Assembly (NCBI GenBank): GCA_022844165.1
Contig: JALHMH010000006.1
Span: forward strand, 20,167-84,166
Reading direction: 5' to 3'
Length of the DNA stretch: 64,000 bases
DNA from: Lysobacterales bacterium
GTDB taxonomy: Bacteria > Pseudomonadota > Gammaproteobacteria > Xanthomonadales > SZUA-5
Shown: positions 49,887-64,000 of the stretch, one piece after another
Numbering within the stretch: position 1 is the first letter of the stretch
Layout of the letters: every line of letters starts with the position of its first letter
Notes under the pieces: model-generated
Told to the model about the DNA's origin: nothing
The model's input: the letters and a program-made list of their open reading frames with translations, nothing else
Databases searched by the model: none
Translations under genes and position numbers: made by a program

Positions 49887-51410
49887 CTAACCAACCCGCA
49901 AGCGCAGCCGCAAGCCGAGTTCGTCGAAGGTGTTTTTTTCCTGCCGAAGGTCGGTCCAGGTCAACGGATGCTTGGTCAGCCAGCCGCGCGGGAATTTGAG
50001 GTCGAAGTCGCGGCCGAGGATGTTGACGGTCAGCGGTGGCAGGGCTTCTTCGCTGCGTGCACGGTGCAGGACCACGGCGAGTCGGAAAATCGCCAAGGTC
50101 TTTTGAAAACGGTCGAGATCACGTTCGGCGATGTCTTCGAAGGTGTGATCGGGAATTCCGCGGCGATGGCCGAGCACCAGCGCCGCGACGGTTGCTTGTT
50201 CTTGCCGGGAGAAGCCCGGCAAATCCGAATGTTCGATAATGTACGCGCCATGTTTGTGGTGTTGCGTATGCGAGATCGACAGGCCGATCTCATGCACCAG
50301 CGTGGCGTACAACAAGGTGTCGCGCTCTTCCTGCATCAGACCCCAGCCGGCGGCCGCCTGGTCGAACAGATTGAGCGCCGTGGCCTGCACGCGCAGCGCC
50401 TGCGCCTGATCCACGGCATAGCGTTTTGCCAGCGTGCGGATGCTGCGTTCGCGCGGATCCTGCTGTTGCTGGCGGCCGAGCGAATCGTACAACAAACCCT
50501 CGCGCATTGCGTAGTCGCTGACGCGTAACAGATCCAGATCGAGCGCCTCATAACACGCCCAAAGCGCCGCCAGACCGCCGAGGAAAATCGGTCGGCGGTC
50601 TTCGCTCAGCGACGGCAAACGTGCGCGCTGCACAACGCCCACTTCGATGACGCGATCAATCAAATCCAGCAATCCGGCGCGCGTCACTTCGCGCTCGCGG
50701 CCACCCATCGCATGCAGAATGCTGCTCAGCGACTTGACGGTTCCAGAGCTGCCGATGACACGTTTCCAGCCGCGCGCTTTGTACGCGGCCAGTATCGGCT
50801 GAAATTCGATGGACAGCCGCAACTGCGCATCTTGCCAACGTTTGCGCGTGACTTTGCCGTCGGCAAAAAAGCGCTGCGAGGTGGCTACGCAGCCGAGCTG
50901 CAGACTCTCGGTTTCCAGTGTGTCGAAGCCGCGGCCGATGATCAGTTCGGTACTGCCGCCGCCGACATCGATCACCAACTGCTGTTGGCGCGGATCGTTC
51001 AGTCCGTGCGCGACGCCCAGGTAAATCAGCCGCGCCTCTTCGCGACCGGAGACCACCTCGATGGGTGCGCCCAGCGCGGTTTCCGCGGTCATCAGGAAGG
51101 CGCGCGGCGATTTCAGCTGGCGCACCGAGTTGGTCGCCACAGCGCGAATGCGCTCCCGCGGCACATTGCTCAGGCGTTGCCCAAAGCGCGATAAACAGGC
51201 GATCGCCCGCTCGCGGACGTCCGGGTTCAGTTGCCCATCTGCGGTGAGCCCAGCGGCCATGCGGACCGAATCGCGCAGGCGGTCGACGACCTGCAGCTCA
51301 CCTTCGGAAAAACGGGCGACGATCATATGGAAACTGTTCGACCCAAGATCGACCGCGGCCAGCGGCGTACTATCGACGATGTCTTTAGGGTCGAACGGCA
51401 TTTCTATCAT
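49887..51410 (-). CDS. ppx: exopolyphosphatase (Ppx/GppA family)
   Basis: AAVDLGSNSFHM, DVGGGSTE. The ATG overlaps the ppk stop (ATGA). Confidence 0.9.
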   Translation of the reverse strand: MIEMPFDPKDIVDSTPLAAVDLGSNSFHMIVARFSEGELQVVDRLRDSVRMAAGLTADGQLNPDVRERAIACLSRFGQRLSNVPRERIRAVATNSVRQLKSPRAFLMTAETALGAPIEVVSGREEARLIYLGVAHGLNDPRQQQLVIDVGGGSTELIIGRGFDTLETESLQLGCVATSQRFFADGKVTRKRWQDAQLRLSIEFQPILAAYKARGWKRVIGSSGTVKSLSSILHAMGGREREVTRAGLLDLIDRVIEVGVVQRARLPSLSEDRRPIFLGGLAALWACYEALDLDLLRVSDYAMREGLLYDSLGRQQQQDPRERSIRTLAKRYAVDQAQALRVQATALNLFDQAAAGWGLMQEERDTLLYATLVHEIGLSISHTQHHKHGAYIIEHSDLPGFSRQEQATVAALVLGHRRGIPDHTFEDIAERDLDRFQKTLAIFRLAVVLHRARSEEALPPLTVNILGRDFDLKFPRGWLTKHPLTWTDLRQEKNTFDELGLRLRLRVG

Positions 51411-53458
51411 CCTGCAATGCGCGCCAGCAGCGCGCTCTGCGCCGCGTGCGGCATGTCGTCGCCCGCTTCGACGCGCACGTAACTGCCGTCGCTCTGCAGG
51501 CGCCACGCCTGCGTGTTGTCGGCCAGGTAGTTCTCCAGAGTCTCGTTGAAGACACGCTGTCGCAGGCTCGAATCGAGAATCGGAAAGCAGGTCTCGACGC
51601 GGTTCAACAGATTGCGTTCCATCCAATCGGCGCTGGACGCATACAGCTCTTCGCGACCGTTGTTGTAGAAATAACAGACGCGGGAATGTTCGAGAAAACG
51701 GCCGACGATGGAATACACGCGGATGTTGTCGCTGACACCCGGCACGCCCGGCCGCAGCACACAAATCCCGCGTACGAACAACACCACTTCGACGCCAGCT
51801 TCGCTGGCACGATAGAGCGCGTCGATGACCTGCGGTTCGCTCAACGCGTTCATGCGCGCCAGGATTTTTCCGCCCTTACCGGCGCGCGCGTTCTTGGCCT
51901 CGCGGTCGATCTTGTGGATCAGCTGTTTGTGCAGCGTAAACGGCGAATGCAGCACTTGTTTGAGCTTGATCGCCTGACTCAAGCCTGACAACTGCTGGAA
52001 CAGCTTGTGCACATCTTCGCCGATGTCGGTATCGGCCGTGATCAGACCGATATCGGTGTAAACGCTGCTGGTGCCCTGGTGATAGTTGCCGGTTCCCAAA
52101 TGCACGTAGCGCCTGAGCTTGCCGTTTTCGCGGCGCACGATGAGCAGCATCTTGGCGTGCGTCTTGTAACCGACCACGCCATAGACCACCTGCACGCCGG
52201 CCTCCTGCAGCCGATTGGCCAGATCGATGTTCGCCTCTTCATCGAAGCGAGCGCGCAGCTCAACGATGACGGTGACATCCTTGCCGGCGCGGGCGGCTTC
52301 TATCAAGTAGTCGACCAGCACCGATTTGCGACCGGTGCGATACAGTGTTTGTTTGATCGCCAACACATCGGGATCGTGCGCGGCGGTTTTCAGCAAATCG
52401 ACGACGGTCGAAAAACTGTCGAAAGGATGGTGCAACAACACATCCTGCTCGCGCACCATATCGAACACATTGCCGACCTTCGGCGCCTGAATCCGCGGCT
52501 TGAACGCCTGGTACTTCAAATCCGGTCGGTCGACCAGGTCGTACACCGCGCCGACGCGGTTCAAATTGACAGGCCCATTGACGCGGAACATATCGTCTTC
52601 GCTGAGTTCGAAGTGTTCCAACAGATACTGGCCCAGCGCGCGCGGGCAACTGTCGGTAATTTCCAGGCGCACCGCGCGTGCGAAGCCGCGATCGAGTAGC
52701 TCGTCGCGCAGCGCGTGCGCCAGATTTTCCACATCGAATTCGTCGACCCACAACTCACTGTTGCGCGTGACCCGAAACGGGTAGACCCCTTTGACCTTCA
52801 TGCCAGGGAACAGATCGTCGACGAAGTCCTGCAAGATGGTGCTCAGCAGCACGACATCGTGCGTGCCGTTGGAAATTTCTTTCGGCAGCCGCACCAGGCG
52901 CGGCAACGAGCGCGGCGCACGCACCAGCGCCAGATCCGCTTCGCGACCGAAGGCGTCTTTGCCCTTCAGCGCCACCGCCACATTCAAACTCTTGTTCAAG
53001 ATCCGTGGGAACGGGTGCGCAGGGTCCAGACCCAGCGGGCTCAACACTGGCATCAGCTCGTCGTTGAAATAACCCTGCAACCAGCGCCGCTGCTTCGCAT
53101 TCCACTCGTCGCGCATCAAAAAATTGATGCCCTGCGCGGAGAGTTTGGGTTTGAGTTCCTGATTCCAGGTTTGGTACTGCTCGCGCACCAGGCTCAACGC
53201 TTCGGTGCGAATCGCCGCCAACACATCAGCAGCAGTGCGTCCGTCCGGCCACGGTTTGCTCGCCAGAAAGTTCACCTGGTGGCGAATCGATGCCACCCGG
53301 ACCTCGTAGAACTCATCGAGATTGGTGCACGAAATGCACATGAAGCGCAGGCGCTCAAGCAGCGGCACACGATCATCCTGTGCCTGGGCAAGCACGCGCC
53401 GATGGAATGCGAGCAAACTGGTTTCGCGGTTGAGAAATAGGCTGGGATCGCGACTCAC
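51407..53458 (-). CDS. ppk: polyphosphate kinase 1
   Basis: 683 aa. LNRETSLLAFHRRVL N-terminus and two PLD-like HKD-type segments (KTHAKMLLIVR). Confidence 0.93.
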   Translation of the reverse strand: MSRDPSLFLNRETSLLAFHRRVLAQAQDDRVPLLERLRFMCISCTNLDEFYEVRVASIRHQVNFLASKPWPDGRTAADVLAAIRTEALSLVREQYQTWNQELKPKLSAQGINFLMRDEWNAKQRRWLQGYFNDELMPVLSPLGLDPAHPFPRILNKSLNVAVALKGKDAFGREADLALVRAPRSLPRLVRLPKEISNGTHDVVLLSTILQDFVDDLFPGMKVKGVYPFRVTRNSELWVDEFDVENLAHALRDELLDRGFARAVRLEITDSCPRALGQYLLEHFELSEDDMFRVNGPVNLNRVGAVYDLVDRPDLKYQAFKPRIQAPKVGNVFDMVREQDVLLHHPFDSFSTVVDLLKTAAHDPDVLAIKQTLYRTGRKSVLVDYLIEAARAGKDVTVIVELRARFDEEANIDLANRLQEAGVQVVYGVVGYKTHAKMLLIVRRENGKLRRYVHLGTGNYHQGTSSVYTDIGLITADTDIGEDVHKLFQQLSGLSQAIKLKQVLHSPFTLHKQLIHKIDREAKNARAGKGGKILARMNALSEPQVIDALYRASEAGVEVVLFVRGICVLRPGVPGVSDNIRVYSIVGRFLEHSRVCYFYNNGREELYASSADWMERNLLNRVETCFPILDSSLRQRVFNETLENYLADNTQAWRLQSDGSYVRVEAGDDMPHAAQSALLARIAG

Positions 53459-53561: not shown

Positions 53562-54959
53562 CTACTGATTGCCTCCCACCGCCCGCGCCAACGCTGCATA
53601 CCATTCTTGTGCGCGTTCCGGCTCCACCATCGACGCGTAGGCGACCCAGCCGCGCAGGTAAGACTGAAAATTGGGGTGTCCAGCGCGATTTTGTGCATCG
53701 AGGCCGGTTCGGGCGGCGTTATGCAGCATGGCGCGCAGGCGGCGTTTGTCGTCGCGCTTCAGGCCAACGGCGGTGTTGACCACGAGCCCGGTGACCTCCT
53801 GGCGTTGCGCCTGACCCATCACGTGGGTTTTGTCGGGATGTTCGGTGAATCCTTCGGCGTGCAATATCCGTCGCACCGCGCCCAGTAGCGGCCCCAGCAG
53901 GCTGCGATCGGGGCCGGAGAAACTGAGATCGTCGGCATACCGTGTGTAAACGAATCCAGCGCGACGGGCGAGGCCCGCGAGCCGCGCATCGAGGCGTTTG
54001 CAGATCAGATTGGTCAGCAACGGACTGGTGCACGCGCCTTGTGGCAACTGGCGCTCGCCGATGGCGATATGGAACCGGCGCTTGAGTGGATCGCCGGCGA
54101 TGGCGCCCGCAATCCGCGGCGGTTCCGTGGTCAGCAGCGCCAACAATGTGGCCACCGCTCCGGAATAACCGAACGCGCGAAACAAGCCGCGCACCCGGGT
54201 GAAGCGCACGCTGGGGAAAAAATCCTTCAGATCGAGATTCACGAGCAGCGCGCGCCCCACGTGGTTCTGCGCGTTGCTCAGGGTCGATCGGCCAGCGACA
54301 AAACCATGCGCCTGGGCGCTGGTCCCCAGCGGTGCGAGCATCGCCAGAATCCAGCGTTGGCAGGCATCGAGTGCCGGCTTCGGCGCTGAGATGGCGCGAA
54401 CACCGCCGGTCTTCTTCGGAACCTCATAGCGGTGGTAATGCACCAGCGTGGCGCCGCGTCGGTGGTAGGTCAACCAGCGCAGTTTGCCGATGCTGATGCC
54501 GAGCGCAGCAGCGAGATCGCTGGCGCTGTGCAATACCGGCAGACCGGCACGCGTGAGTTTCTGCGCATCGCTCTGCGCATCGTTCAGCTGATCGCTGACG
54601 CCGCTTCCGGCGTGCACAATGGTAGCGAGCTTGTGGGCTTGCCAGGCATCGCGCCTGGCGCGGCGATCGGCGTCGGCTTGCGCCTTGCGTAACGCGCGGC
54701 GCTTCTTGCTCTCTTCCCAGCGTCGCGCGCGTTCGGCTTTGAGCGCGGCCTGCACATCGTCGACAGTGAGCGCACTCCTGCCGATGCGCGCCAGCTCGGC
54801 TTCGATTTGTTTGCGTTCCGCGGCTTCGTCTGGCGGATCGGGCGGCAGGCCATCGGCGATCGGCCAATAACCGAGCGCCTTCATCCGCTGCAGCACGATT
54901 TGATCGTCGAGCCGCGCGAGGCGTTTGTACAAATACTGCAGGTGCTCCTGTTCGCTCAT
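53562..54959 (-). CDS. retron-type reverse transcriptase with ~140-aa charged N-terminal extension
   Basis: RT motifs PKKTGGVRAISAP, NLDLKDFFPS, LPQGACTSP, YADDLSFS. Retron-associated signatures NAQNH (NAxxH) and RQEVTGLVVN (VTG). A structured ncRNA lies immediately upstream. Confidence 0.85.
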   Translation of the reverse strand: MSEQEHLQYLYKRLARLDDQIVLQRMKALGYWPIADGLPPDPPDEAAERKQIEAELARIGRSALTVDDVQAALKAERARRWEESKKRRALRKAQADADRRARRDAWQAHKLATIVHAGSGVSDQLNDAQSDAQKLTRAGLPVLHSASDLAAALGISIGKLRWLTYHRRGATLVHYHRYEVPKKTGGVRAISAPKPALDACQRWILAMLAPLGTSAQAHGFVAGRSTLSNAQNHVGRALLVNLDLKDFFPSVRFTRVRGLFRAFGYSGAVATLLALLTTEPPRIAGAIAGDPLKRRFHIAIGERQLPQGACTSPLLTNLICKRLDARLAGLARRAGFVYTRYADDLSFSGPDRSLLGPLLGAVRRILHAEGFTEHPDKTHVMGQAQRQEVTGLVVNTAVGLKRDDKRRLRAMLHNAARTGLDAQNRAGHPNFQSYLRGWVAYASMVEPERAQEWYAALARAVGGNQ

Positions 54960-54979
54960 GGCGCACGCCCCAACCAGAG

Positions 54980-55214
54980 CGAGCGTGGCGCGGCAGCATC
55001 TTCCGACGAAGCTTGCGACGGGACCGGTCCACTAATGCGGATCGCACCCAGCCGACCAGCCCGCGGCGACCGCAGGTCGCATACCAGCAGCGGGCGCGGC
55101 TGGGTGCGATCCGAGAGTGCCGAACGGGCCCGTGAAGAAAAAGCCACAGACCAGCATGCGCGGCGTAACGCCGCACGGGTTGCGAAGACGAACAGCTCGT
55201 CCGCGCCACGCTCG
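54980..55214 (-). ncRNA. candidate retron msr-msd non-coding RNA
   Basis: A perfect 14-nt inverted repeat brackets the region (cgagcgtggcgcgg at 54980-54993, ccgcgccacgctcg at 55201-55214). An internal 74-nt hairpin (55039-55112) has a perfect 16-bp basal stem (ggatcgcacccagccg / cggctgggtgcgatcc) plus inner 6-bp and 5-bp stems. Two small hairpins lie in the 5-prime part on the minus strand (GACGA-GCTGT-TCGTC and GCGGCG-TTA-CGCCGC). The region ends 20 nt upstream of the RT ATG. Exact msr/msd ends are unknown. Confidence 0.7.
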
Positions 55215-55250
55215 ATTCTTTCTACGTCAGCCAATCTCAAGATGCAAGCC

Positions 55251-56954
55251 TCAGCCATGTTGCGCGTCCTCCTGGCCGAGCCGTTGCATATGCACCAAAC
55301 GCAAACCAAGCACATGCGGGCATGGCCCTTTGGTCAAGCCGTCGCGCAACATCTGTGCACAGGTACACGAGGCGCTCAAGATCTCGCCGCTATGGCTGAT
55401 ATGCAACTGCGGCCTGACGCGGCTGCTGCCATCGGCCGCATTGCCGGAGAGTTTGTAGCCGTCATCGACCGGACGCCGCGCGATGATCACCACGTCGCCG
55501 GCGGCGGCGATGGCTTGGGCCGCTTTGGCTTTGGGTTGGCTGGCTTCGTGTTTTTTCGCCGCCGTCAGCGCTTGTGCCGCATCGAAGGCCTGCAAGGTCA
55601 GGTCGCGGTGGCGCACGCACTCACTGCCAAGATCGATCATCGCGCGCCCGGCTTGCGCCAACAGGCTCAGCGCACTGCGGGTTTTTTCGATGCCGAATCC
55701 CAGACTCGACGCCAGTTCCGGCGTGCGCGCCCAGCGTTGCCCACGCAGCGTGGTGTACACCCGATCGAGTTCCGGCGCGGTGACTGCCAATCGCTGCGTC
55801 AACAGGTCGAATCGCCCTTCGCCCTCGACCCAGTCGTTGTCGGTCCACCCGGACAACGCCAGCGTGAACTCGATACCACATGGCAGCGCGCACACCCAGA
55901 CGCTCGGCAGACCGCTGGCCGACAGGTACACATCCACGTGTCGCGCAACGGGCAACACGCGCAACAGGCTGCGCAATCGCTCGCGCCCCCAGACGCGAAT
56001 CGTCGCGATTTTGTCGCCGCCGTACACACTGGATGGCGAGCACCAGATCGAGCGATTCCAAGGCTCCAGCACCAGCCGCACCGGTTCGCCGGGGCGCAGC
56101 TCGAAACGCAGCGCGCGTGGACTCTCGCGGGTTTTGTGTGTCAGCAAAAAGTTCAGCGCGTTGAGCACGTCGACCGGTTGCAAGCGCAGCCGGATCAAAC
56201 CCATCGACATCAATCCGTGTACCCGCAAAAAACCTTCGAGCCAACCTTCGGGCAGGTCGATACGTTTTTCCAGCGCGGTGGCATCACCGGCTTTGGGTTC
56301 GAGGCGTTCGGAAGCGAAACCGCCGGCGCCGATATCGAAGCGCGTCGCGCGATAACTGCGCAGGCGATCGAAGTGATCGGCGAGCCGCGCGCTGAAATCG
56401 ATGTTGGTAGTTCCATATTCGATCGCTTCGATGCGCTCGAACGCAGCCAGCGGCAGCGCGAGTCGACCATAACTCGACTGGTCGCGCGAAAACGCCTCGA
56501 ACGAGAGTTGATCCGGGTGCACAGTGATCACCGGGTCCAGCACCCGATTCAGTTCAACATCGCTGCTGACGGCGTATTGCATCCAGCGCTGGCGCGCAGC
56601 GTCGAAGGGTAGTCGGCGCGCCGCGCGGGCGGCGTCGAGTTCGATCAGACGCGCGTTCAATTCCGCCATCCGCGACTTCGCCGCGAGCGACTTGCTGCCC
56701 AGACTGGCGACGAATGCCTGGTCCTGGCGCTCCAGCCACGCGCGGTAAGCAAGACGCGCCTTGGGACGATATTTGTAGTCGCCAACCACCACCGAATACA
56801 GCGCAGCGAAGCTCTCGCGCGCCAGCAGCGGCTGCGCCAGCGTGCCGCGGAAAAAGGTCGCCTCGCGCAACTGGTTGGTCGCCAATGCCAGCCGCGCGTC
56901 AGCGCCGTGCATCTCGACGCCGCTGCGGCCCGAGTAGCGGTATTCGATGCTCAT
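55251..56954 (-). CDS. winged-helix + SWIM zinc-finger protein
   Basis: C-terminal SWIM signature CTCAQMLRDGLTKGPCPHVLGL (CxC..CxH) preceded by a WH-like segment (TPELASSLGFGIEKTRSALSLLAQAGRAMIDL). 4-nt overlap with the upstream ARM/HEAT gene. Confidence 0.8.
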   Translation of the reverse strand: MSIEYRYSGRSGVEMHGADARLALATNQLREATFFRGTLAQPLLARESFAALYSVVVGDYKYRPKARLAYRAWLERQDQAFVASLGSKSLAAKSRMAELNARLIELDAARAARRLPFDAARQRWMQYAVSSDVELNRVLDPVITVHPDQLSFEAFSRDQSSYGRLALPLAAFERIEAIEYGTTNIDFSARLADHFDRLRSYRATRFDIGAGGFASERLEPKAGDATALEKRIDLPEGWLEGFLRVHGLMSMGLIRLRLQPVDVLNALNFLLTHKTRESPRALRFELRPGEPVRLVLEPWNRSIWCSPSSVYGGDKIATIRVWGRERLRSLLRVLPVARHVDVYLSASGLPSVWVCALPCGIEFTLALSGWTDNDWVEGEGRFDLLTQRLAVTAPELDRVYTTLRGQRWARTPELASSLGFGIEKTRSALSLLAQAGRAMIDLGSECVRHRDLTLQAFDAAQALTAAKKHEASQPKAKAAQAIAAAGDVVIIARRPVDDGYKLSGNAADGSSRVRPQLHISHSGEILSASCTCAQMLRDGLTKGPCPHVLGLRLVHMQRLGQEDAQHG

Positions 56955-59431
56955 GCCACCGCCTCGAACGCACTGCTGAGCGTCGGAAACAGCAGTCTCA
57001 AGCGCGTCAAAGTGACGGCGATTGCCTCAAAGTCGCGTTGATTCGCGGTGCGCAATGCGGCATCCAGGATATCGATGGCGATGCGCGCCTGGCTTTCATC
57101 GCTGGCGCCGCGATCGGCGACGATGGCGAACAAACGGTCTTTGGCCGATCGCGCCAGGCGCGGCGTCAACAGGCTGGATCGCAAAAACGGCGCCAGGCGA
57201 CTGAACGCATCTGTGCCCTGCGGCCAGTGCGCGTCGAGGAGTCCGAGCGCCAGTTGGCGCATCGCCACGTGCGGGTGTTCGATGAGCCGCTGCAATAGCT
57301 GCGGTGCATCAAGATCGGACAGTCGTGCAATCACGATGCGCGTGGCGAAGGCTTGCACATCGCTGCGATTGGAATCGCACAAAGCGACCAGCGCATCGAG
57401 CGATAGCGCGGTCGCGTCGAGCCGTTGCAACAACGCAAAAGCGTGCGCGCCGTTGTCGCTGAATCGCGACTCGGCGAGTTGGATCAGCGGCCAGGGATCG
57501 ATCTGCAGCTGCGGTAAAGCGCGTTCGAGCAAAATCGCTGCCGCGCCGCGCACGCTTTGCACTTCATCTTCTGCAAGCATCGCCAGGCGCGCACTGCCGA
57601 GCAGCGTCAACGATTGTGGGTGGGCGGCGAGCAGCGCGCCACCCAGCGTGCGCTGGGTCAGCGTACCATCCTGCACCAGCGCCAGAACCTGCAGCAGCGG
57701 CAGCGTTGCCGCGGCTACGTCGGCGTAGGCGGTCAGTACCGTCAGCAGCGCCTCGTCGCGTTCACTCGGCGCCTCGCGCATGGCGTGCAGCAGGCGCTCA
57801 AGCACTGTGATGCGCGGCGCATCGTCGAGCACGGCAAGCACCGCCTGGGTGAGCTGCGCGATCGCCTGCCGACCGGCATCGGTGCGCCGACGCATCAGCC
57901 GCGGCAGTTGCGCGTGCACGATCCACACCGACGCGCTGCGGCTCAAGAACGCCTGCGCCAAAGCACGCGCCAGATCGCCACCATCGAGTAGTGCCGCGAG
58001 CAGTTTCAGATCCGGCACCGTCGCGTCGAAGCGGCGCTCGGCCTCGGCGCGCGCACTGGCGGCAATCCGCGGCGTATCGATCAGCGCCGCAAGATCGGTG
58101 GGGCTGGCGGTTGCAATCGCCTCCGGGTGGCGCATCAGTCCGTCGATACCGAACGCGCGGACCTCATCGAGCCCACCGGTGGCCAGGCTCACGAACGCTG
58201 CCGGCTTGGCATCGAAGCGATCGACGAAGGGCACGTCGGCGAGCAGCCAGGGTGTTTTGACCGCTGCCGTGTCGCGATAACACACGCGGCTCATCGCATC
58301 GACGCGTTGGCGTTTGCCTTTGCCGTGCAACAAGCGATGCAGCATCAACGCGTACACAAAAGGCGACTGCAAGGCACGCGGCGCGCGCGCATCGTCGGCG
58401 CCATAACGCCGCAGCACGGCCGCGGCGGCAAGTGGGTACAAATCGCGCCGCCAGTACGCCAGAAGGCGCAGCCAGCGCGCGCTGGCGCGACACACGTAGG
58501 CCTGCGTTTTGGCGCCGAACACCAGCGTCGATCGCGATTGCCCATCCAAGCCGCTCTTCAGCGACTGGCGCGCGCCGGCGGTGCGTGCGCGACGCCGCTC
58601 GAAGGCCAACGCCAACTCGGCAAACGTCTCAAGATCGGCGCGCAGCATCGCGCGTTTCCAAATGCTCTTGGTGTACCGCCAACGATGCGGCGCATCCCAA
58701 TCCGCCGTCGTGCGGCGCACCGCTGCGACGCACAGCGGCGTGCCGAATTCGTAGAGTTGATCGAGCACCAGGCCGCGCCGCGGCGCATCGATGCCATCGA
58801 TCGCAGCGCACAGCGCATCGACAGCGGCCTGCGCAGTCGATTGTTCGTCCAGGCCAATCAATGTTGCGCGCAACGTATCCGGCAAACGCTGCAATCCTTC
58901 GGCGCGTGCTGTCGCCAAACCCTCCGCATCGCCCAGCGCGCGCAATGCCTCGACACCCGAGCGGCGGCGCGACAGCAGCTTCTTCGCCGCCTGCTCGCGT
59001 AGTAGCGCTATGGCGCGTGTGTCGCCGATGCGTCCCAGAGCATCGACGATCACCCCGATCTCCGGCGGGTTCTTCGCCGCCAATCCGAGCAGCGCCGGAA
59101 CCGCATCCACGGCTTGCCGCCATCCCAGCGCCGTCGCCGCCAGCGCCCGTGGCTTTTGATGCAGCGATGAAAGTCGCTCGATCAGCGGCTCATGCCCACC
59201 GACTTCGGCGTAACCCGCGATCCGCAGGCGCTCGAGCACATGCTGCATCCGCGCTTGCGTTTCGGTCTGCGCGAAGGGCCCATACACGGTGCCGCCGGTC
59301 AACTGCTGCCGCGAAGGACCGGTCGCCAGGCGCAAAAGAATCTGCCCCGGCGCACTCGCGGCCTCGATCGACAGCAGCGTGTATCGCGAATGCGCTGCGG
59401 CATGCGGACTCTTGAGCAGGATCGGCGACAT
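56951..59431 (-). CDS. large alpha-helical ARM/HEAT-repeat protein with possible N-terminal WGR-like domain
   Basis: 826 aa, Leu/Ala-rich helical repeats. HEAT-like units (AVPALLGLAAKNPPEIGVIVDALGRIGDTRAIALLRE). The N-terminal ~70 aa has a beta-rich pattern ending in LERLRIAGY, reminiscent of WGR/MolR-type N-domains (tentative). Confidence 0.65.
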   Translation of the reverse strand: MSPILLKSPHAAAHSRYTLLSIEAASAPGQILLRLATGPSRQQLTGGTVYGPFAQTETQARMQHVLERLRIAGYAEVGGHEPLIERLSSLHQKPRALAATALGWRQAVDAVPALLGLAAKNPPEIGVIVDALGRIGDTRAIALLREQAAKKLLSRRRSGVEALRALGDAEGLATARAEGLQRLPDTLRATLIGLDEQSTAQAAVDALCAAIDGIDAPRRGLVLDQLYEFGTPLCVAAVRRTTADWDAPHRWRYTKSIWKRAMLRADLETFAELALAFERRRARTAGARQSLKSGLDGQSRSTLVFGAKTQAYVCRASARWLRLLAYWRRDLYPLAAAAVLRRYGADDARAPRALQSPFVYALMLHRLLHGKGKRQRVDAMSRVCYRDTAAVKTPWLLADVPFVDRFDAKPAAFVSLATGGLDEVRAFGIDGLMRHPEAIATASPTDLAALIDTPRIAASARAEAERRFDATVPDLKLLAALLDGGDLARALAQAFLSRSASVWIVHAQLPRLMRRRTDAGRQAIAQLTQAVLAVLDDAPRITVLERLLHAMREAPSERDEALLTVLTAYADVAAATLPLLQVLALVQDGTLTQRTLGGALLAAHPQSLTLLGSARLAMLAEDEVQSVRGAAAILLERALPQLQIDPWPLIQLAESRFSDNGAHAFALLQRLDATALSLDALVALCDSNRSDVQAFATRIVIARLSDLDAPQLLQRLIEHPHVAMRQLALGLLDAHWPQGTDAFSRLAPFLRSSLLTPRLARSAKDRLFAIVADRGASDESQARIAIDILDAALRTANQRDFEAIAVTLTRLRLLFPTLSSAFEAVA

Positions 59432-59441
59432 GTGCTGAGGT

Positions 59442-60152
59442 TTACTCGAACTCGCTGTCGTCGAAGTCCTCGAGGGCGCCCGCCAGAGTGGGTTTCGACG
59501 GCGTCACGCCCATGCTTTCCAGCGCTGGCGCAGCTTGCTTGCGAAAACCGCTGGCCGGTGTCAACGGGCCGAGAATGCCCTCAAGCGCCATGCGCATCTG
59601 CTGGAAGTCGCGAAACGCGTGTTCGCGGAACAGATCGTACGCCGTCCACATCAGATCGGCGCAGATTTCGGCAGGCACGCGACCCGTTTGCGCGCCCAGG
59701 CCGGGCAACGCCACGGAGCGAATCGAACCGGGTTCTTCGGTGTTCTGGATATGCACCGCCTGGAACGCTGCCGCGCACGCCAGCGCCACGTTCATGCTGG
59801 CACTGATGTCTTGATTGGACGACACCATCGTTGGCGTCGAAATCAGAAACCTGGGCTGCACGCGTTCCGTGGGCACGCACACGGCATGACCGACCGGCAT
59901 CGCACCTTGATGCTTGCGCTTGATTTCGCCTTTCACCTGATGCTCGATCTTCGCGCCCAGAAAATTCTTGATGACCAGATCGAGCCCGCCATCCATGCTG
60001 CCGGCCGAATTCGTCGGCGATACCCAGGCGCTGACCGGTTGATCGAGCATCGAACCATGCACGATCTCGACTTCTGGGTTGCCCTCAAAACTGGCGCGCC
60101 ACGCGGCGATGATCTTCGGATTAATGTCGACGAGGAGAACTTTGACGAGCAT
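59442..60152 (-). CDS. macro-domain protein (putative ADP-ribose binding/hydrolase)
   Basis: VSPTNSAGSMDGGLD (N..G.GGG-type diphosphate loop variant) and SVALPGLGAQTG (second macro loop). Only 10 nt from the ARM/HEAT gene start. Confidence 0.75.
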   Translation of the reverse strand: MLVKVLLVDINPKIIAAWRASFEGNPEVEIVHGSMLDQPVSAWVSPTNSAGSMDGGLDLVIKNFLGAKIEHQVKGEIKRKHQGAMPVGHAVCVPTERVQPRFLISTPTMVSSNQDISASMNVALACAAAFQAVHIQNTEEPGSIRSVALPGLGAQTGRVPAEICADLMWTAYDLFREHAFRDFQQMRMALEGILGPLTPASGFRKQAAPALESMGVTPSKPTLAGALEDFDDSEFE

Positions 60153-60222
60153 GGGTTTTCCAGTGATTGAACGAGCAGTCGATGTCGAGCGTTGGAAGGT
60201 CTTCGGCCGGACGCGGAGCTAC

Positions 60223-61653
60223 CTAAATCGTAAACTCAACCAAATACTCCAGGCGCTGTTGATTCGGCGAGTACACCACATACTCGTCGTCGGCGAATTG
60301 CGATGGCGAGAGCAGTTTGTGACGCACGCCGTGGCATGAATCGTAGCCCGGCGGTGGGCTTTCGAGCCCATACGTGATCTTCGTGTACGGCGCCATCTTG
60401 CCCAGCGCGACGCGCGCCAGCGCCATGAAACGCGTGCCTTTTTTGCCGGGCGTGGTGTAAAAGGCGCTGGTGCAGGCGGCGTCGCCGAAGTAGATGCCAT
60501 GGCCAAGCCATCCGGCGTCGGTGCGATTGACGCCCATACCGACCACAATCTTCGGCATCAAAATGCCGCGCGACAACAAGCCCACCCAGTTGCGAATCCG
60601 CGAGCCGTGGAACAACAACCGCTGGTTGTCGATATGCGTGGTGAACCCATCCCACTCGCCTTTGCGCTTGAGCGTGTAGATGGCTTTGACTTTGATGTTC
60701 TTGCTCTTGATCTGCGACTTCAGCACGTAGCGTTCGATTTCGTCGTAGGCACTGCCTTGACCCAAAGTGGCGACTTCGCAGTGAAGCGCCTGATATTTGG
60801 CATCGATCTCGTCCTCGAACAAGACACTGCCGGCCTCGCCGTTGACTTGCAGCATGTCTTTCATCAGCTGCAAGGTTTCTTGCTTCTGCTCGAATTCGGC
60901 GGGGGTGTCGATGACCGCTTCGGCGATCGCCTCGCGGGTGCGACCGATACGATGCGGAATGCAGGTGTAGAACTCGCCCGACAGTGCCTCGATTTTGTCT
61001 TGCAGTTTGCCGTTGGCCTTTTTGCTCGACTCGAAGATCTTGAACAGCTCGGCCAGGATCGCCTCGCCTTTTTCGATCTGCCCGAGCGTCAAAACGCCGA
61101 GCGGCGTTTCGATGCCGTTGGCCGTGATCTTGGCCGCAACGGTGTTGACCAGTGCGGTCGTGGCCTCATCGTAGATGTAGCGAATCAGCGCCTGGATATC
61201 ACCCGTCAGCGACGACGGTGGGCGCGCCGCGCGCTTCTCTTTTTCGCCCTCGATACGCTCCAGCGTCTTGGCGTCGATCTGCCCACTGGAGGCGCCGCGC
61301 GCCTTATGCGAACCGATTTTGCTCGAGGCCAGCGAAACTTCTTTGTAGCCTTTGCTGGCCCCGGTTTTTTCCCGGTAGATCTGCTGGTAACAGACTTCTC
61401 CCTCGGCGCGCGTCGCGAAGTGTCGCGTCTCACGAGCACCCGCACCGGGATTGGTTTCCAGATCATCGGTACGACCGTAATGCGTGAAGACGCGAAACTT
61501 GCCGCCGCCTTCATGCAATTCGATCGCGTAGTACTTGTTGTGATTGCTCTTGATATCGGTGACCTGCAGCACCGCCTTTTGCAGCACTTCGAAATCTTCC
61601 GGAAAGCTCGGCTCGTCGCTGGCGCCGAATTTGTAGGCTTTGGGTTTGGCCAT
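60223..61653 (-). CDS. WGR + helical regulatory domain + PARP catalytic domain protein (eukaryote-like PARP)
   Basis: WGR segment NHNKYYAIELHEGGGKFRVFTHYGRTD. HD segment LSGEFYTCIPHRIG (compare PARP1 LSNRFYTLIPHDFG). Catalytic H-Y-E residues lie in LFHGSR, GIYFGD and DDEYVVY. Confidence 0.88.
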   Translation of the reverse strand: MAKPKAYKFGASDEPSFPEDFEVLQKAVLQVTDIKSNHNKYYAIELHEGGGKFRVFTHYGRTDDLETNPGAGARETRHFATRAEGEVCYQQIYREKTGASKGYKEVSLASSKIGSHKARGASSGQIDAKTLERIEGEKEKRAARPPSSLTGDIQALIRYIYDEATTALVNTVAAKITANGIETPLGVLTLGQIEKGEAILAELFKIFESSKKANGKLQDKIEALSGEFYTCIPHRIGRTREAIAEAVIDTPAEFEQKQETLQLMKDMLQVNGEAGSVLFEDEIDAKYQALHCEVATLGQGSAYDEIERYVLKSQIKSKNIKVKAIYTLKRKGEWDGFTTHIDNQRLLFHGSRIRNWVGLLSRGILMPKIVVGMGVNRTDAGWLGHGIYFGDAACTSAFYTTPGKKGTRFMALARVALGKMAPYTKITYGLESPPPGYDSCHGVRHKLLSPSQFADDEYVVYSPNQQRLEYLVEFTI

Positions 61654-61693
61654 GTGCGTGAAAAAGCGGGCGAAGGCGGCAGACTACCTGTCT

Positions 61694-62710
61694 TCACACA
61701 CGCATTGCCAGCGCACGCAAGTCATCCGATCGTTCAACGTCGCGCACCCAGTGCGCGGGCAGGGCATCGATGCCCAAACGTGCCCCCACCAGGGCACCGG
61801 CCAGCGTCGCCAGCGAATCGCTGTCGCCGGGCGAATTGGCGCCCGCCAGGATCGCACCCGGCGCATCGTCTTTGTACCGCGCGAACAGGTACACCGCAGC
61901 AGCAATCGCCTCGTGCGCCGCCCAACCGCGCAGGCGATCGAGCGTCACCACCGGTTCCACGCCGTCGCGCGCTTCGTCGAAAGCGCGCTGCATCATGACA
62001 GCGGTTGGCGGCGAATAACGCGCCGCCGCCGAGATCATGGATTCAATCGCACGTTCCGCCGGCCAATCGTGCAACACCCGCGCAACGCCGACAGCCATCG
62101 CCGCGCTCGCTGCCAGCGCAATCGGATCGCGATGCGTCAGCTTCGAATGCGCCACCGCCCAGTCCTCGGCGCGCTGCACATCGTCCCGATACAACAGTCC
62201 GAACGGATAGGCGCGCATCACCGAACCGCAGCCACCCGCTGCCTCTCCGCCGGCCAGCTGCCAGGGCGTGCCACTGGCCAACGCGCGGCAACCGGCCATA
62301 CACGCGTTTCCTGGCGCACGATGACCGCCCTGCGGCGCCTGCGCCCAGGCCACAAATGCGCGGCTCATGCGGCGCATCGCGGCATCCAGATCTTCGTCGG
62401 CATTGCGGCTATCGAGCAGGCTCGCCAACACCGCTTCGGCCATTTGGGTGTCGTCGGTGTACGGCGCGAAACGCTGTCCACCACGCTCCCAATAAAGCTC
62501 GAAGCCGCGCACACCGTCCGATCCGTAACGCAACTCGATCTGACTCATCGACATAAACTCGGTGGGATGACCCATCGCATCGCCAATCGCCGCCCCAAGC
62601 ACGCATCCGACGACCGCTCGCTGCATCGGCCGAATCGGCGCCGCCGGCGGCGATCCGCTCACCACGGGCCACTGCAACTGCAATTGCGCGATCAGCTCAT
62701 CTGACGCCAT
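61694..62710 (-). CDS. ADP-ribosylglycohydrolase (ARH/DraG family)
   Basis: GAAIGDAMGHPTEF, YTDDTQM and GDSDSLATLAGALVGA metal-binding motifs. Confidence 0.88.
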   Translation of the reverse strand: MASDELIAQLQLQWPVVSGSPPAAPIRPMQRAVVGCVLGAAIGDAMGHPTEFMSMSQIELRYGSDGVRGFELYWERGGQRFAPYTDDTQMAEAVLASLLDSRNADEDLDAAMRRMSRAFVAWAQAPQGGHRAPGNACMAGCRALASGTPWQLAGGEAAGGCGSVMRAYPFGLLYRDDVQRAEDWAVAHSKLTHRDPIALAASAAMAVGVARVLHDWPAERAIESMISAAARYSPPTAVMMQRAFDEARDGVEPVVTLDRLRGWAAHEAIAAAVYLFARYKDDAPGAILAGANSPGDSDSLATLAGALVGARLGIDALPAHWVRDVERSDDLRALAMRV

Positions 62711-62775
62711 TTAGAAGGGCTCCGGTTCACTTCAAGAAAGTCTAGCTGACGACCAGACCGCAGCACATTGAACTT

Positions 62776-64000
62776 TCAGGCTGCGCCATGCAGCGACTCG
62801 CACATGGAATTGTCGAGATCCGCAAGAAATTCCGAAGCCGGTCGAACACTGGTCACCAACAAGCGCTCTCGGGCACGTGTGCTGGCGACATACAACAAGT
62901 GTCGCTCAGTGGCATAGACATTCGCCAAATCGGCCTCATCGCTGATGGCCTCGATGCGGGATTGCAGCGGAACGATCTCATCATCGCAAGCCATCACGGC
63001 AACAGCGCGGAACTCCAGACCCTTCGCCAGGTGCATCGCACCGATCGAGATAGCACCCACTGACGTATCGGCATGCTCGTCAAGTAGCTTGAATTGCAAC
63101 CCTGCCGTTGTGGCAGCGGCTTTAGCACGCTCAAGTTGCTCGAAGGAACGAACGAAAAGCGCTATTTCATGGAGCGAAATTAGCTCTCCAGCGCGTGCAC
63201 ATAGCCACTGCGCAACATGCGCTATCTCCTGGGCTTCGCTATCGAAGCACCGAATGATTGGCGCGGGCCCGTTAAACACCGAGATAGTGCCGCGGCGGCT
63301 ATCGGTATTGCCGTCGACATCGGAAATTTCCTCGTCAAGCAGACGATCGGCCTGGATTCGAATTTGGTGGGACGTGCGGTAATTCACCTTCAGCGTACGC
63401 GAGCGACCGCGCACATCGACACCCAGTGTGGCCCAAGAAAAAGGCGTCTGGAAGATCCGCTGCCCCAAATCGCCGGCGAAGAACAGCCCATTCGCGTGAT
63501 CGCCCGATAAGGCCGCAAGGAAGCGCAACTGCGCGACGCTAATGTCCTGCGCCTCGTCGATTACCGCATGCTGATAAGGTCGATTCGCTTGCTGCTGTTC
63601 GGCAAGCCGGTGGAACATTGCCGCCCGCGTCATCAACTGAGCCGTTTCAAGCGCTTGCCAGACGCGCTCGAACACCTGCCACAACGCGGCACGCTGCGCC
63701 TCGTTGAGCCGCGTCTTGCGTCCCAAACGCTTGACGTCGCGATAGGCTTCCCAAGTGCGCAACTGCCAGGCGTCGACGATCTCCTGCCACTCCTGGCGCA
63801 CGAACGCGACATTGAATCGAAGATTCTCGCCGCGCGTCGCGCCTGCGAGCATTTGCGCAACGTCTGCGTCGCTCGCCAAAGAGCCGCGCTTGCCGAAGAG
63901 CCGCTCGCCGAGAGCGTCCATAGCGTACACATCGATGCGCTCGCCGAGCCTGGGCTGAGCTTTGATGAGCTTGCGCAAACGATTGTGCAGCGCGTTGGCG
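62776..64000 (-). CDS. UvrD/Rep-like superfamily 1 helicase, N-terminus beyond window
   Basis: VIDEAQDIS (motif II), FFAGDLGQRIF, NYRTSHQI, HLAKGLEF and YVASTRARERL (motif VI). The reading frame stays open to the window edge. Confidence 0.8.
   Translation of the reverse strand, partial: ANALHNRLRKLIKAQPRLGERIDVYAMDALGERLFGKRGSLASDADVAQMLAGATRGENLRFNVAFVRQEWQEIVDAWQLRTWEAYRDVKRLGRKTRLNEAQRAALWQVFERVWQALETAQLMTRAAMFHRLAEQQQANRPYQHAVIDEAQDISVAQLRFLAALSGDHANGLFFAGDLGQRIFQTPFSWATLGVDVRGRSRTLKVNYRTSHQIRIQADRLLDEEISDVDGNTDSRRGTISVFNGPAPIIRCFDSEAQEIAHVAQWLCARAGELISLHEIALFVRSFEQLERAKAAATTAGLQFKLLDEHADTSVGAISIGAMHLAKGLEFRAVAVMACDDEIVPLQSRIEAISDEADLANVYATERHLLYVASTRARERLLVTSVRPASEFLADLDNSMCESLHGAA

Follow-up and report, generated by a model that had tools for sequence, protein, structure and literature searches.

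The region from 53562 to 62710 of the window (the whole stretch of 64,000 nucleotides that was analysed) would constitute a single system joining a type XIII retron to a NAD+-dependent ADP-ribosylation arm, and we give this reading, mechanism included, a probability of about 0.5. Taken by itself, the narrower claim that PARP-macro works with the retron as a single functional unit is highly probable. In the retron core are a reverse transcriptase (RT), a WGR-like ARM/HEAT protein, a msr-msd ncRNA of ~235 nt and a WH-SWIM protein whose fold is predicted to be clamp-like; the ADP-ribosylation arm has a PARP whose H-Y-E triad is intact and, after it, a macro gene directly 5' of ARM, plus an ARH nearby. 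ORF calls placed seven co-directional genes and one retron ncRNA on the minus strand, from the RT through a helicase:

53562..54959, minus strand: retron reverse transcriptase (RT), 465 aa, type XIII / clade 10
54980..55214, minus strand: retron ncRNA (msr-msd), ~235 nt, inverted repeat and covariation
55251..56954, minus strand: WH-SWIM accessory protein, 567 aa, PADLOC SWIM_XIII
56951..59431, minus strand: ARM/HEAT-repeat accessory protein, 826 aa, Pfam HEAT_2 and PADLOC
59442..60152, minus strand: macro-domain protein, putative ADP-ribose eraser, 236 aa, Pfam Macro
60223..61653, minus strand: bacterial PARP, 476 aa, WGR + PARP_reg + PARP
61694..62710, minus strand: ADP-ribosylglycohydrolase (ARH/DraG family), 338 aa, Pfam ADP_ribosyl_GH
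62776..64000, minus strand: SF1 UvrD-like helicase, C-terminal 407 aa, UvrD_C + UvrD-helicase, ORF truncated where the window stops

Junctions recomputed from the ORF coordinates were 65 nt for helicase-ARH, 40 nt for ARH-PARP, 70 nt for PARP-macro and 10 nt for macro-ARM, with a 4-nt overlap for ARM-SWIM, 36 nt from SWIM to the a1 arm of the ncRNA and 20 nt from its a2 arm to RT, which reproduced exactly the coordinates and junction lengths of the preliminary description. The block adjoins ppk1 (51407-53458) and ppx (49887-51764) on the left, both genes being confirmed. No terminator-like site was found at any minus-strand junction of the block, including the one between macro and ARM/HEAT, where a terminator had been named beforehand as evidence against a joint operon. 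The Pfam and PADLOC searches proposed at that stage returned matches for RT, macro, WGR/PARP_reg/PARP, ARH, UvrD and type XIII.

The RT matched Pfam RVT_1 (2e-19) and PADLOC RT_XIII (1.5e-150), displayed the motifs NAQNH229, RYADD340 and VTG389 together with an N-terminal extension of ~140 aa, and had the Ec86 RT as its nearest solved structure (1.3e-39). The ncRNA is bounded by a 14-bp terminal inverted repeat (a1, 55214-55201; a2, 54993-54980) and contains a conserved msr hairpin (55176-55158) and a long msd hairpin (55113-55037), with a minimum free energy of -136 kcal/mol (z = -5.2). Stems a1/a2 of 12-31 bp, differing in sequence, were present in 43 of 46 related SWIM-RT spacers. The consensus structure of 25 relatives was 90.8% paired, vs. 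72% in shuffles and <=41% in slid controls, and compensatory changes occurred in 28 of 39 pairs, a covariation score reached by none of 500 shuffles; no Rfam family matched this ncRNA. In its published definition (Mestre 2020, PMC7736814), type XIII combines a clade 10 RT with two partners, one a WH-SWIM protein and the other a HEAT/ARM protein described as 'WGR-like'. Judged by its sequence (RT_XIII, SWIM_XIII, ARM/HEAT and the covarying ncRNA), the retron is a bona fide member of this type, and the type XIII assignment made earlier agrees with both that definition and the PADLOC matches.

The SWIM protein (PADLOC SWIM_XIII, 5.3e-154) has acidic residues in invariant columns (D140, D148, E153, D186, and E229) and, at 530-547, a zinc finger of the form CxCx12CxH; both features were preserved in the PARP-linked clade. 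Its AF2 model (pLDDT 78.9) gave only PCNA among the top 50 Foldseek matches in the PDB (best E 2e-8, TM by target 0.55-0.72), and PCNA, beta-clamps and herpesvirus processivity factors in BFVD, so a DNA sliding-clamp fold is predicted for the central region (~140-370). The ARM/HEAT protein matched Pfam HEAT_2, PADLOC HEAT-ARM_XIII (1.5e-43) and PADLOC WGR_XIII (2e-69), the last covering profile positions 118-638 only. Its N-terminus is a discrete domain of ~80 aa with four strands and a helix (AF2 pLDDT 91), whose best TM-scores, to the PARP2 WGR, were 0.43-0.45 and not significant. Pfam WGR found no match in this protein, whereas 7 of 8 canonical type XIII ARM proteins carry an N-terminal Pfam WGR; WGR is ancestral to type XIII. 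The N-terminal domain aligned in register with the canonical ARM WGR (hhalign, E 4e-4) and is probably a degenerate WGR. The WGR of the PARP and that of ARM aligned in hhalign with E 1e-4.

The PARP matched Pfam WGR (2.5e-9), PARP_reg (8.9e-18) and PARP (8.2e-30), corresponding to a WGR domain at 26-106, a helical regulatory domain at 147-268 and a catalytic domain at 303-446. Its triad H349-Y388-E457 was intact and invariant in 30 homologues, and the closest PDB matches were the human PARP4 catalytic domain (1.8e-45) and PARP2 (2.4e-27). The macro protein matched Pfam Macro (4.4e-12) and an NCBIfam ADP-ribose-binding protein model below its cutoff (5e-17); its profile retrieved from the PDB macroH2A1.1 (4.5e-6), YMR087W (1.4e-5) and the DarG macro domain (2e-3), and a weak DarG likeness was also obtained with PADLOC (5.9e-4) and PDB entry 5m31 (7.6e-4). 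The macro gene adjoined PARP in all 48 retron-linked loci, and in P0159 and P0193 the two are fused into one chain.

The ARH matched Pfam ADP_ribosyl_GH (3.7e-60), with its acidic motifs present, and MJ1187 (1.2e-21) and DraG (2e-16) in the PDB. As a member of the block it was frequent, being found in 22 of the 30 retron+PARP loci for which flanks were available, but its position varied. The arrangement found here, with ARH 5' of PARP, recurred in L085, L018, and L028. Directly after the RT, ARH was fused or adjacent to a NAD-dependent DNA ligase in L023, L025, L027, L029, L090, L100, L101, and L165; fusion with this ligase (LigA) occurred in six loci, all limited to one PARP subclade. The helicase, matching Pfam UvrD_C (4.7e-16) and UvrD-helicase (1.4e-8) and far below cutoff with every NCBIfam helicase model, had also been counted in the block. 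A tblastn search of 165 related loci found no relative of it, and L085, the closest relative (PARP 88% identical), has a Ser/Thr protein kinase in its place; it was therefore rejected as a system member and is regarded as a neighbour only.

Conservation was analysed on a locus sample with many MAG contigs and some near-duplicates; of the 34 complete arrays compared, window included, only 29 were non-redundant. Of 26 informative genome loci anchored on SWIM, 22 kept the order PARP-macro-ARM-SWIM-ncRNA-RT on one strand, so that PARP and macro do accompany orthologous trios elsewhere. Among the 55 informative members of one PARP clade, which holds the retron-linked PARPs, 48 presented the same order, four had macro only and three stood alone; members of a second, basal clade were all stand-alone. 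Loci bearing the array span Myxococcota, Planctomycetota and Acidobacteriota and include an isolate, Tautonia sociabilis, with a patchy distribution across distant phyla and variable insertion sites. Sandaracinus amylolyticus and Pendulispora rubella contribute named proteins, which stand outside the adjacency evidence. Median gaps (n = 50) were 34 nt for PARP-macro and 16.5 nt for macro-ARM (<=50 nt in 35 of 50, with some overlapping stop and start codons), and ARM-SWIM spacing was -4 nt almost universally. The type XIII retron of L050, a distant one, precedes a different PARP (33% identical, classical WGR, HYE intact) and a convergent ARH-macro fusion, which we read as a second, independent acquisition of PARP and ARH-macro by this retron type. 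No other conserved neighbours of the array were found. The claim that both modules share one conserved array is borne out by these counts, by the tight gaps and by L050, and spacing and synteny suggest that PARP-macro and the retron form one operon.

In the mechanism that we propose, the RT would make msDNA, which the ARM and SWIM proteins would hold. The PARP would be DNA-dependent, as are PARP1-3 and the PARP of Herpetosiphon, which is active only with DNA (review PMC8120803). The PARP here would be switched on, via WGR and the autoinhibitory helical domain, when the retron complex supplies or exposes a DNA end or junction, candidate triggers being msDNA perturbed by phage or breaks from the firing of the retron's own effector. 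The active enzyme would then consume NAD+ and ADP-ribosylate proteins or DNA ends, arresting the infected cell or the phage, while macro and ARH, the latter fused to a NAD-dependent ligase in some lineages, would limit basal modification and reset the system. In other retrons msDNA is the switch, and Retron-Eco1 depletes NAD+ (PMC12640716, PMC12948488). The presence of N-terminal WGR in canonical ARM proteins makes it more plausible that WGR reads msDNA; even so, msDNA or a retron-generated end as the PARP ligand is a tentative proposal. A role of the system in phage defence has an even chance; no demonstration of type XIII anti-phage activity was found in the searchable literature. The separability of the modules, the vertical inheritance and possible domestication noted for type XIII (Mestre 2020), the housekeeping flanks, the absence from viral contigs and the moderate distance correlation weigh against a unified defence reading.

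Several of these observations bear on an unlikely alternative, namely that retron and PARP-macro-ARH (with LigA in some) form an inherited DNA-damage or nick-response module serving genome maintenance instead of immunity. PARP would mark breaks, erasers and ligase would restore the DNA, and the clamp-fold SWIM/WGR-ARM retron complex would participate or regulate. The ARH-ligase linkage after the RT in the eight loci listed, the clamp fold predicted for SWIM and the WGR domains in both ARM and PARP proteins are consistent with this, as are the flanks, which in this window as in relatives consist of housekeeping genes (ppk1/ppx; the ast operon and a TonB receptor) and not of defence islands, the failure to find copies on viral contigs, and the vertical, 16S-correlated inheritance signal of type XIII (Mestre 2020, PMC7736814). 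However, all retrons characterised so far are phage-triggered toxin-antitoxin-like systems (PMC12640716, PMC12948488), the array is patchy across distant phyla at variable sites, a writer paired with its eraser is what conflict systems like DarTG typically show, and ARH-LigA fusions occur in a single PARP subclade.

It is likewise improbable that the ADP-ribose module acts as a regulator, with PARP reversibly modifying msDNA ends, RT, ARM or SWIM, and SWIM, held or released by ADP-ribosylation, remaining the effector at a threshold set by macro and ARH. Canonical type XIII retrons occur without PARP in 47 tier-2 loci, implying an effector that already exists, SWIM proteins of the PARP-linked clade retain the acidic residues and the zinc finger, and both eraser families are kept. 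PARP1-3 reportedly ADP-ribosylate DNA termini, a modification said to be reversed by macro, ARH3 and PARG enzymes (Talhaoui 2016; Munnur and Ahel 2017). On the other hand, the predicted SWIM fold is clamp-like and not nuclease-like, and PARP was the most conserved protein of the array (mean distance 0.35 vs. 0.43-0.61 for the retron proteins), a pattern that an enzyme acting on a cellular target would explain no less readily than a regulator. Mere juxtaposition, in which PARP-macro(-ARH) is an autonomous toxin-antitoxin-like cassette riding beside type XIII retrons, is very improbable: the retron occurs alone in L003, L006, and L026, PARP-macro occurs without it in L104/L106, L114, and L131, the basal PARP clade lacks it entirely, and evolutionary distances of PARP/macro correlated only moderately with those of retron genes (r 0.60-0.70 vs. 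0.84-0.90 among retron genes), but order and strand are constant and the macro-ARM gap is short (median 16.5 nt) over 50 loci of several phyla, a single clade holds the retron-linked PARPs, an unrelated PARP lineage is attached to the retron of L050, and no further neighbours are conserved.

Compared with known systems, the unified retron-PARP reading departs from type XIII retrons (Mestre et al. 2020; Mx162, Mx65, Ne144, Sa163) mainly in its additions. Shared are the RT clade, an ncRNA placed between SWIM and RT, a WH-SWIM protein that has the CxCx12CxH finger as well as conserved acidics, the 5' ARM/HEAT gene and its 4-nt overlap with SWIM; here, in contrast, PARP-macro stands directly 5' of ARM with ARH nearby, and the ARM protein is ~200 aa shorter with a probably degenerate WGR. 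PARP, macro and ARH are unmentioned in the Mestre 2020 classification and not modelled in PADLOC. No retron-PARP link was found in the searchable literature, consistent with the earlier statement that no PARP-armed retron had been described. Retron-Eco1 (Ec86) resembles the proposed system in a retron output that consumes NAD+, as is predicted here, and in an msDNA switch perturbed by phage factors; its RT-msDNA-effector filaments hydrolyse NAD+ through an N-glycosidase/ribosyltransferase-like effector without erasers, whereas the predicted NAD+ user here is a PARP with its own WGR and autoinhibitory domain and two eraser families. Eukaryotic PARP1/2/3 signalling, with PARG, ARH3 and MacroD as erasers, shares the WGR-helical regulatory-catalytic architecture, the H-Y-E triad and macro and ARH erasers, and human PARP4 and PARP2 are the best solved matches; the lineage-specific BRCT-bearing NAD-dependent ligase and the predicted clamp-fold protein recall PARP-PCNA-ligase repair hubs. 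The host here is bacterial, the PARP has neither zinc fingers nor BRCT, its gene lies in a probable operon with a reverse transcriptase and an ncRNA, and the system may itself produce the DNA that this PARP binds. DarTG also couples an ADP-ribosyltransferase, acting on DNA, to a macro-domain hydrolase (the antitoxin), and the macro protein here is weakly DarG-like; the transferase here is a PARP and not DarT. Bacterial PARP-PARG pairs (Herpetosiphon aurantiacus, Clostridioides difficile CD160) likewise place PARP beside a hydrolase that reverses its product, and HaPARP depends on DNA in vitro (PMC8120803). For such pairs neither a biological role nor a partner is known, whereas the pair here is embedded in a retron and its eraser belongs to a distinct macro clade, not PARG-type, with remote PDB matches. 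With retron, PARP and reversing enzymes together in one conserved, probable operon in dozens of genomes from several phyla, bacterial PARPs would thereby gain a concrete partner and a testable role.

The block under study lies on the minus strand at 53562-62710, and a helicase fragment beside it reaches the end of the window. Its features are as follows.

Features of the block (from the ORF table, with the supporting model, unless stated otherwise)
53562-54959, minus strand: RT; Pfam RVT_1
Between RT and SWIM, minus strand: ncRNA of 235 nt, with a 14-bp inverted repeat (a1 55214-55201, a2 54993-54980)
55251-56954, minus strand: SWIM (WH-SWIM) protein; PADLOC SWIM_XIII
56951-59431, minus strand: ARM/HEAT protein; Pfam HEAT_2
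59442-60152, minus strand: macro protein; Pfam Macro
60223-61653, minus strand: PARP; Pfam WGR, PARP_reg and PARP
61694-62710, minus strand: ARH; Pfam ADP_ribosyl_GH
62776 to past 64000, cut by the window end, minus strand: helicase; Pfam UvrD domains

The ORF table reproduced the seven-gene minus-strand run of the preliminary description with its junctions of 65, 40, 70 and 10 nt and then a 4-nt overlap. To the left the block is bordered by ppk1 and ppx. No terminator-like hairpin was found on the coding strand at any junction, and the promoter scan of the block, which gave no sigma-70-like site, was uninformative. GC content was 0.57-0.62 over macro and PARP (window 59500-61500) vs. 0.63-0.68 over ARM, SWIM, and RT; this dip may reflect a stronger amino-acid constraint or a separate origin of the pair.

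All the retron RT motifs were found in the RT (NAQNH229, RYADD340, and VTG389), and both its best PADLOC matches and the solved structures nearest to it were retron RTs. Residues 1-140 (window 54540-54959, minus strand) are a highly charged N-terminal extension; this stretch of about 140 aa is matched by the RT_XIII model and lies outside RVT_1 and every solved retron RT. Type XIII retrons combine an RT of clade 10 with one protein of cluster 114 (DEDE/WH/SWIM) and another of cluster 216 ('WGR-like + HEAT/ARM'), count Mx162, Mx65, Ne144, and Sa163 among their members, and show a signal of vertical inheritance, their mechanism being not known (PMC7736814). The assignment of the window retron to this type, already made in the preliminary description, was confirmed with PADLOC (RT_XIII 1.5e-150, with RT_other as runner-up at 8.8e-106; SWIM_XIII 5.3e-154; WGR_XIII 2e-69; HEAT-ARM_XIII 1.5e-43), and these profile matches indicate that the retron is real and belongs to type XIII.

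The structured ncRNA expected beside a retron RT was present, with its a1/a2 repeat (14 bp, stopping 20 nt upstream of RT) and its msr and msd hairpins; its MFE was -136 kcal/mol (z = -5.2). Of the 46 SWIM-RT spacers of related loci, 43 had a terminal stem of 12-31 bp around 217-334 nt, the sequence of this a1/a2 stem varying between loci. The RNAalifold consensus of 25 relatives contained 39 pairs, and compensatory double changes were seen in 28; 90.8% of the consensus cells were paired, vs. 71.7% after shuffling and at most 41% with the partners slid, and the observed score was reached by none of 500 shuffles. The Rfam search returned no family for the ncRNA and matched no retron family. Two sub-threshold Rfam matches were judged to be chance: P10, a Pseudomonas sRNA, at 58162-58242 on the plus strand opposite the ARM gene (25 bits; gathering score, 37), and mir-1295, which coincided with the msd hairpin (55037-55113, minus strand).

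Conservation of the arrangement was analyzed in related genome and metagenome loci (L numbers; 165 in total). The SWIM-anchored census comprised 80 genome loci with 10-kb flanks, in which the seven window proteins were placed by tblastn. Tier 1 (33 loci, SWIM 44-54% identical) came from Myxococcota, Planctomycetota, Acidobacteriota, and two bins labelled Alcaligenaceae, and tier 2 (47 loci, SWIM 35-40% identical) included Archangium, cyanobacteria, Bacteroidota, Pleionea, and Phytobacter. PARP and macro were located immediately upstream of ARM and in its orientation in 22 of the 26 tier-1 loci with enough upstream DNA; the exceptions were L003, L006, and L026, with neither gene, and L014, with macro only (L014:5315-6106). 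Window-type PARP, macro, and ARH were found by tblastn in none of the 47 tier-2 loci. The reverse census was anchored on PARP, with metagenome contigs and a PARP tree. A basal split separated one clade that was entirely stand-alone, in miscellaneous metabolic contexts, from another with 48 retron-linked, 4 PARP-macro only, and 3 stand-alone loci, to which 18 further loci with macro belonged on contigs too short to judge; the non-retron exceptions in this second clade fell mostly near its base. Metabolic genes of various kinds surrounded the stand-alone PARPs of L106, L117, L128, L140, L147, and L159, and no hint of a function emerged from them.

The earlier claim that the retron and the ADP-ribose module form one unit was supported by both censuses, PARP and macro standing beside orthologous retrons in 22/26 SWIM-anchored and 48 PARP-anchored loci. 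Among 50 arrays the median gap was 34 nt from PARP to macro and 16.5 nt from macro to ARM (at most 50 nt in 35 of them, the stop codon of one gene overlapping the start codon of the next in several), and ARM and SWIM were separated by -4 nt almost everywhere, a spacing that points to operon-like organization. In close relatives the array occurred in differing contexts, as in L082 and in L083, L086, and L087 (the ast operon with a TonB receptor on one side, unrelated genes on the other). Pairwise distances, compared over 34 complete arrays including the window (only 29 of them non-redundant, since many loci are MAG contigs and several are near-duplicates of one another), correlated at r = 0.60-0.70 between PARP/macro and ARM/SWIM/RT and at r = 0.84-0.90 among ARM, SWIM, and RT; PARP and macro were the most conserved members of the array. 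All-vs-all clustering of the flanking ORFs gave no further conserved gene, the clusters being contaminated by high-GC shadow ORFs. Since PARP-macro pairs were also observed with no retron within 10 kb (L104, L106, L114, and L131), and L014 has macro without PARP, the two modules are separable. Tautonia sociabilis was confirmed as a cultured carrier of the array, and homologues of the components are encoded by Sandaracinus amylolyticus and Pendulispora rubella. In T. sociabilis GM2012 (L033:7467-10001) the ARM match ends at residue 469, and SWIM follows only after a gap of about 1.5 kb; the gene could be disrupted or carry an insertion, or the assembly could be at fault.

A second PARP association was found in L050 (L050:6936-17796), a distant type XIII retron of tier 2 that comes from a Pirellulaceae MAG and whose ARM protein is of the canonical kind with WGR. 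The first gene after its RT encodes a protein of 642 aa in which a Lys-rich N-terminus is combined with a classical W-G-R WGR and an H-Y-E-bearing PARP catalytic domain; next come a protein of 239 aa and unknown function and, in convergent orientation, ARH and macro fused in a single chain. This PARP is only 33% identical to that of the window, and its association is independent of the window-type one. Because bacterial PARPs are rare, chance is hard to accept for two unrelated PARP lineages on type XIII retrons.

In the PARP of the window, the WGR, helical regulatory, and ART catalytic domains all scored above the Pfam gathering cutoffs, an architecture like that of PARP1-3, and H349, Y388, and E457 were invariant among 30 homologues. 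Its best solved relatives were the catalytic domain of human PARP4 (1.8e-45) and PARP2 (2.4e-27), the latter matching from the WGR through most of the catalytic domain. The retron-linked clade holds hundreds of sequences with about 65% identity across phyla. A 2021 review had counted 72 bacterial PARP sequences, described these enzymes as active in vitro with target and role 'unknown', and noted that the Herpetosiphon PARP is active only with DNA (PMC8120803). The macro protein belongs to a distinct, very conserved clade whose only matches elsewhere were remote (macroH2A1.1, yeast YMR087W, and the DarG macro). An identity of the pair as DarTG was rejected: the transferase is a PARP without a PADLOC match, and macro reached only 5.9e-4 against DarG. 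Two homologous proteins, P0159 (729 aa) and P0193 (753 aa), are single-chain PARP-macro fusions with a PARP about 67% identical to that of the window. Viral contigs held no SWIM relatives, and the PARPs there were non-retron only, on very large contigs. Stand-alone PARPs of the basal clade were observed on contigs listed as viral in IMG/VR (L128/L169, 459 kb; L159/L167, 252 kb; and L140), with dense co-directional small genes around them; these may represent jumbo phages, or else bacterial contigs that were classified wrongly.

The ARM protein carries the HEAT/ARM part of the type XIII definition (Pfam HEAT_2 and PADLOC HEAT-ARM_XIII). In canonical (tier-2) ARM proteins, Pfam WGR was found at residues ~12-83 in seven of eight, four of them above the gathering score, and this WGR aligned with the PARP WGR (hhalign E 1e-4); by these comparisons WGR belongs to the ancestral make-up of type XIII. 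ARM proteins of the PARP-linked clade fall about 200 aa short of the canonical length and retain a discrete N-terminal domain, modelled by AF2 with pLDDT 91 as four strands and one helix. Pfam WGR did not match this N-terminus in the window protein or 29 homologues, hhalign did not match it to the WGR of the operon's PARP, and its profile retrieved from 1.84 billion proteins only ARMs of the same type and unrelated HEAT repeats, with no WGR proteins. Against the canonical ARM WGR, hhalign gave a weak match in register (E 4e-4, vs. 0.3 for the reversed control), and in Foldseek against the PDB the best TM was obtained with the PARP2 WGR (0.43-0.45, non-significant). We tentatively read the domain as a degenerate WGR. 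Some ARM/HEAT homologues of 753-771 aa (P0250, P0254, P0283, P0294, P0296, and P0297) show HEAT repeats from the start and lack the WGR-like domain of about 80 aa, which is therefore a separable module.

SWIM matched the model of its cluster-114 family over its full length. The CxCx12CxH motif from residue 530 (C530, C532, C545, and H547) and the acidic residues D140, D148, E153, D186, and E229 are conserved. When the structure predicted from 35 homologues (pLDDT 78.9, pTM 0.77; central region mostly with pLDDT >80) was compared with the PDB by Foldseek, the best 50 matches were all PCNA (E 2e-8 to 2e-6; TM by target 0.55-0.72), and among viral structures (BFVD) PCNA, DnaN beta-clamps, and herpesvirus processivity factors were retrieved. 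The two-domain PCNA/beta-clamp fold was seen in the predicted structure only, the sequence-level search for clamp likeness giving no match. A sliding-clamp fold is thus predicted for the WH-SWIM retron protein, which has been suggested to be a transposase-derived DEDE protein (Mestre 2020, PMC7736814); no literature linking retrons to sliding clamps was found.

The ARH HMM detected ARH in the flanks of 22 of the 30 retron and PARP loci with at least 1.5 kb on both sides. It was convergent just after RT (L001, L004, L019, L032, L082, L011, and L016), co-directional after RT (L012, L020, L021, and L029), upstream of PARP as in the window (L085, L018, and L028), or divergent upstream (L002 and L083). 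These varying positions make ARH a frequent but loosely placed member. In six loci a single ORF directly after RT joins ARH to an NAD-dependent DNA ligase (adenylation, OB, HhH, and BRCT).

ARH-LigA fusions (locus:positions)
L023:13364-16609, ARH-LigA fusion
L025:13484-16882, ARH-LigA fusion
L027:13377-16451, ARH-LigA fusion
L100:11678-14707, ARH-LigA fusion
L101:17937-21416, ARH-LigA fusion
L165:18290-21433, ARH-LigA fusion

ARH and LigA were adjacent and unfused in L029 and L090, and all the loci with the fused or adjacent genes fell in one PARP subclade. The helicase, by comparison, lost its proposed membership: tblastn with the 407-aa fragment found a relative in 0 of 165 loci, and the closest relative has another gene there. 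It scored far below every NCBIfam helicase cutoff, and the GajB (Gabija) model gave 2.2e-17 at best on the truncated protein, as any UvrD-like helicase would; the next gene upstream, where Gabija would have the OLD-type nuclease GajA, lies outside the window. Exact-sequence look-ups with the PARP and SWIM proteins gave no extension past 64000, and the one with ARH led only to a contig of 1.6 kb. The helicase was rejected as a system member and is, from these searches, a neighbour of the system. In the closest relative (L085:148-2364; PARP 88% identical) a Ser/Thr protein kinase was observed upstream of ARH at the helicase's place.

The established picture is that of a type XIII retron beside which PARP and macro form a conserved and closely spaced pair, usually with an ARH; the catalytic motifs are all intact and the ncRNA is conserved; judged from sequence, the array probably works as one functional system (probability of about 0.85). 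The type XIII retron itself was already known, and what is new is the PARP-macro(-ARH) on it. PARP, macro, and ADP-ribose are mentioned neither in Mestre 2020 (PMC7736814) nor in a 2026 retron survey, PADLOC retron XIII has no model for PARP, macro, or ARH, and reviews and surveys of bacterial PARPs and of NAD/ADPr conflict systems (including PMC8120803) mention no retrons or RTs. A full-text search for retron or msDNA with PARP, WGR, macrodomain, or ADP-ribosylation, with subscription-only papers outside its reach, gave nothing relevant, in agreement with the earlier statement that no PARP-armed retron has been described. Mx162, of type XIII, was the first retron ever found, and no mechanism or function for the type was found in the searchable literature. 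The function of type XIII and the role of bacterial PARPs, two old questions, can now be tested together, since a large and highly conserved clade of bacterial PARPs has the majority of its informative members in type XIII retron operons. The RT-msDNA-ARM-SWIM complex is nominated as partner of the PARP, with msDNA or DNA ends as candidate ligand through WGR, and retron biology would gain a new class of effector or regulator, a PARP with erasers. The origin of the eukaryotic WGR-HD-CAT PARP core is also touched by these findings.

PARPs with the WGR-HD-CAT core are turned on by DNA ends, and in DarTG the eraser beside the transferase restrains and resets it. In other retrons msDNA is a switch perturbed by phage factors, and Retron-Eco1 responds by NAD+ hydrolysis (PMC12640716, PMC12948488). 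In the array, the retron complex would supply or unmask the DNA ligand of the PARP, whose activity (NAD+ use and ADP-ribosylation of proteins or DNA ends) would be the output or an amplifier; this mechanism, the most economical one, is built on the known roles of each part elsewhere. A role in genome maintenance, unlikely in our judgment, would accord with the housekeeping flanks, the absence of copies on viral contigs, the vertical-inheritance signal of type XIII (PMC7736814), the ARH-ligase fusions, and the predicted clamp fold of SWIM. A purely regulatory ADP-ribose module appears equally doubtful. That retron and PARP-macro are merely juxtaposed is very improbable, being largely excluded by the synteny data.

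The proposal that the retron arms the PARP can be carried further, in a tentative form that we consider somewhat improbable: msDNA, or a DNA end exposed on it by phage tampering, would be the dedicated activating ligand of the operon's WGR-PARP. If so, this would be the first system with a PARP armed by DNA that the cell itself makes by reverse transcription; and together with the clamp-fold SWIM, the WGR-ARM protein, the macro and ARH erasers, and the ARH-ligase fusion of some lineages, the array would be a bacterial counterpart, possibly the evolutionary source, of the eukaryotic PARP-PCNA-ligase hub of break signalling.
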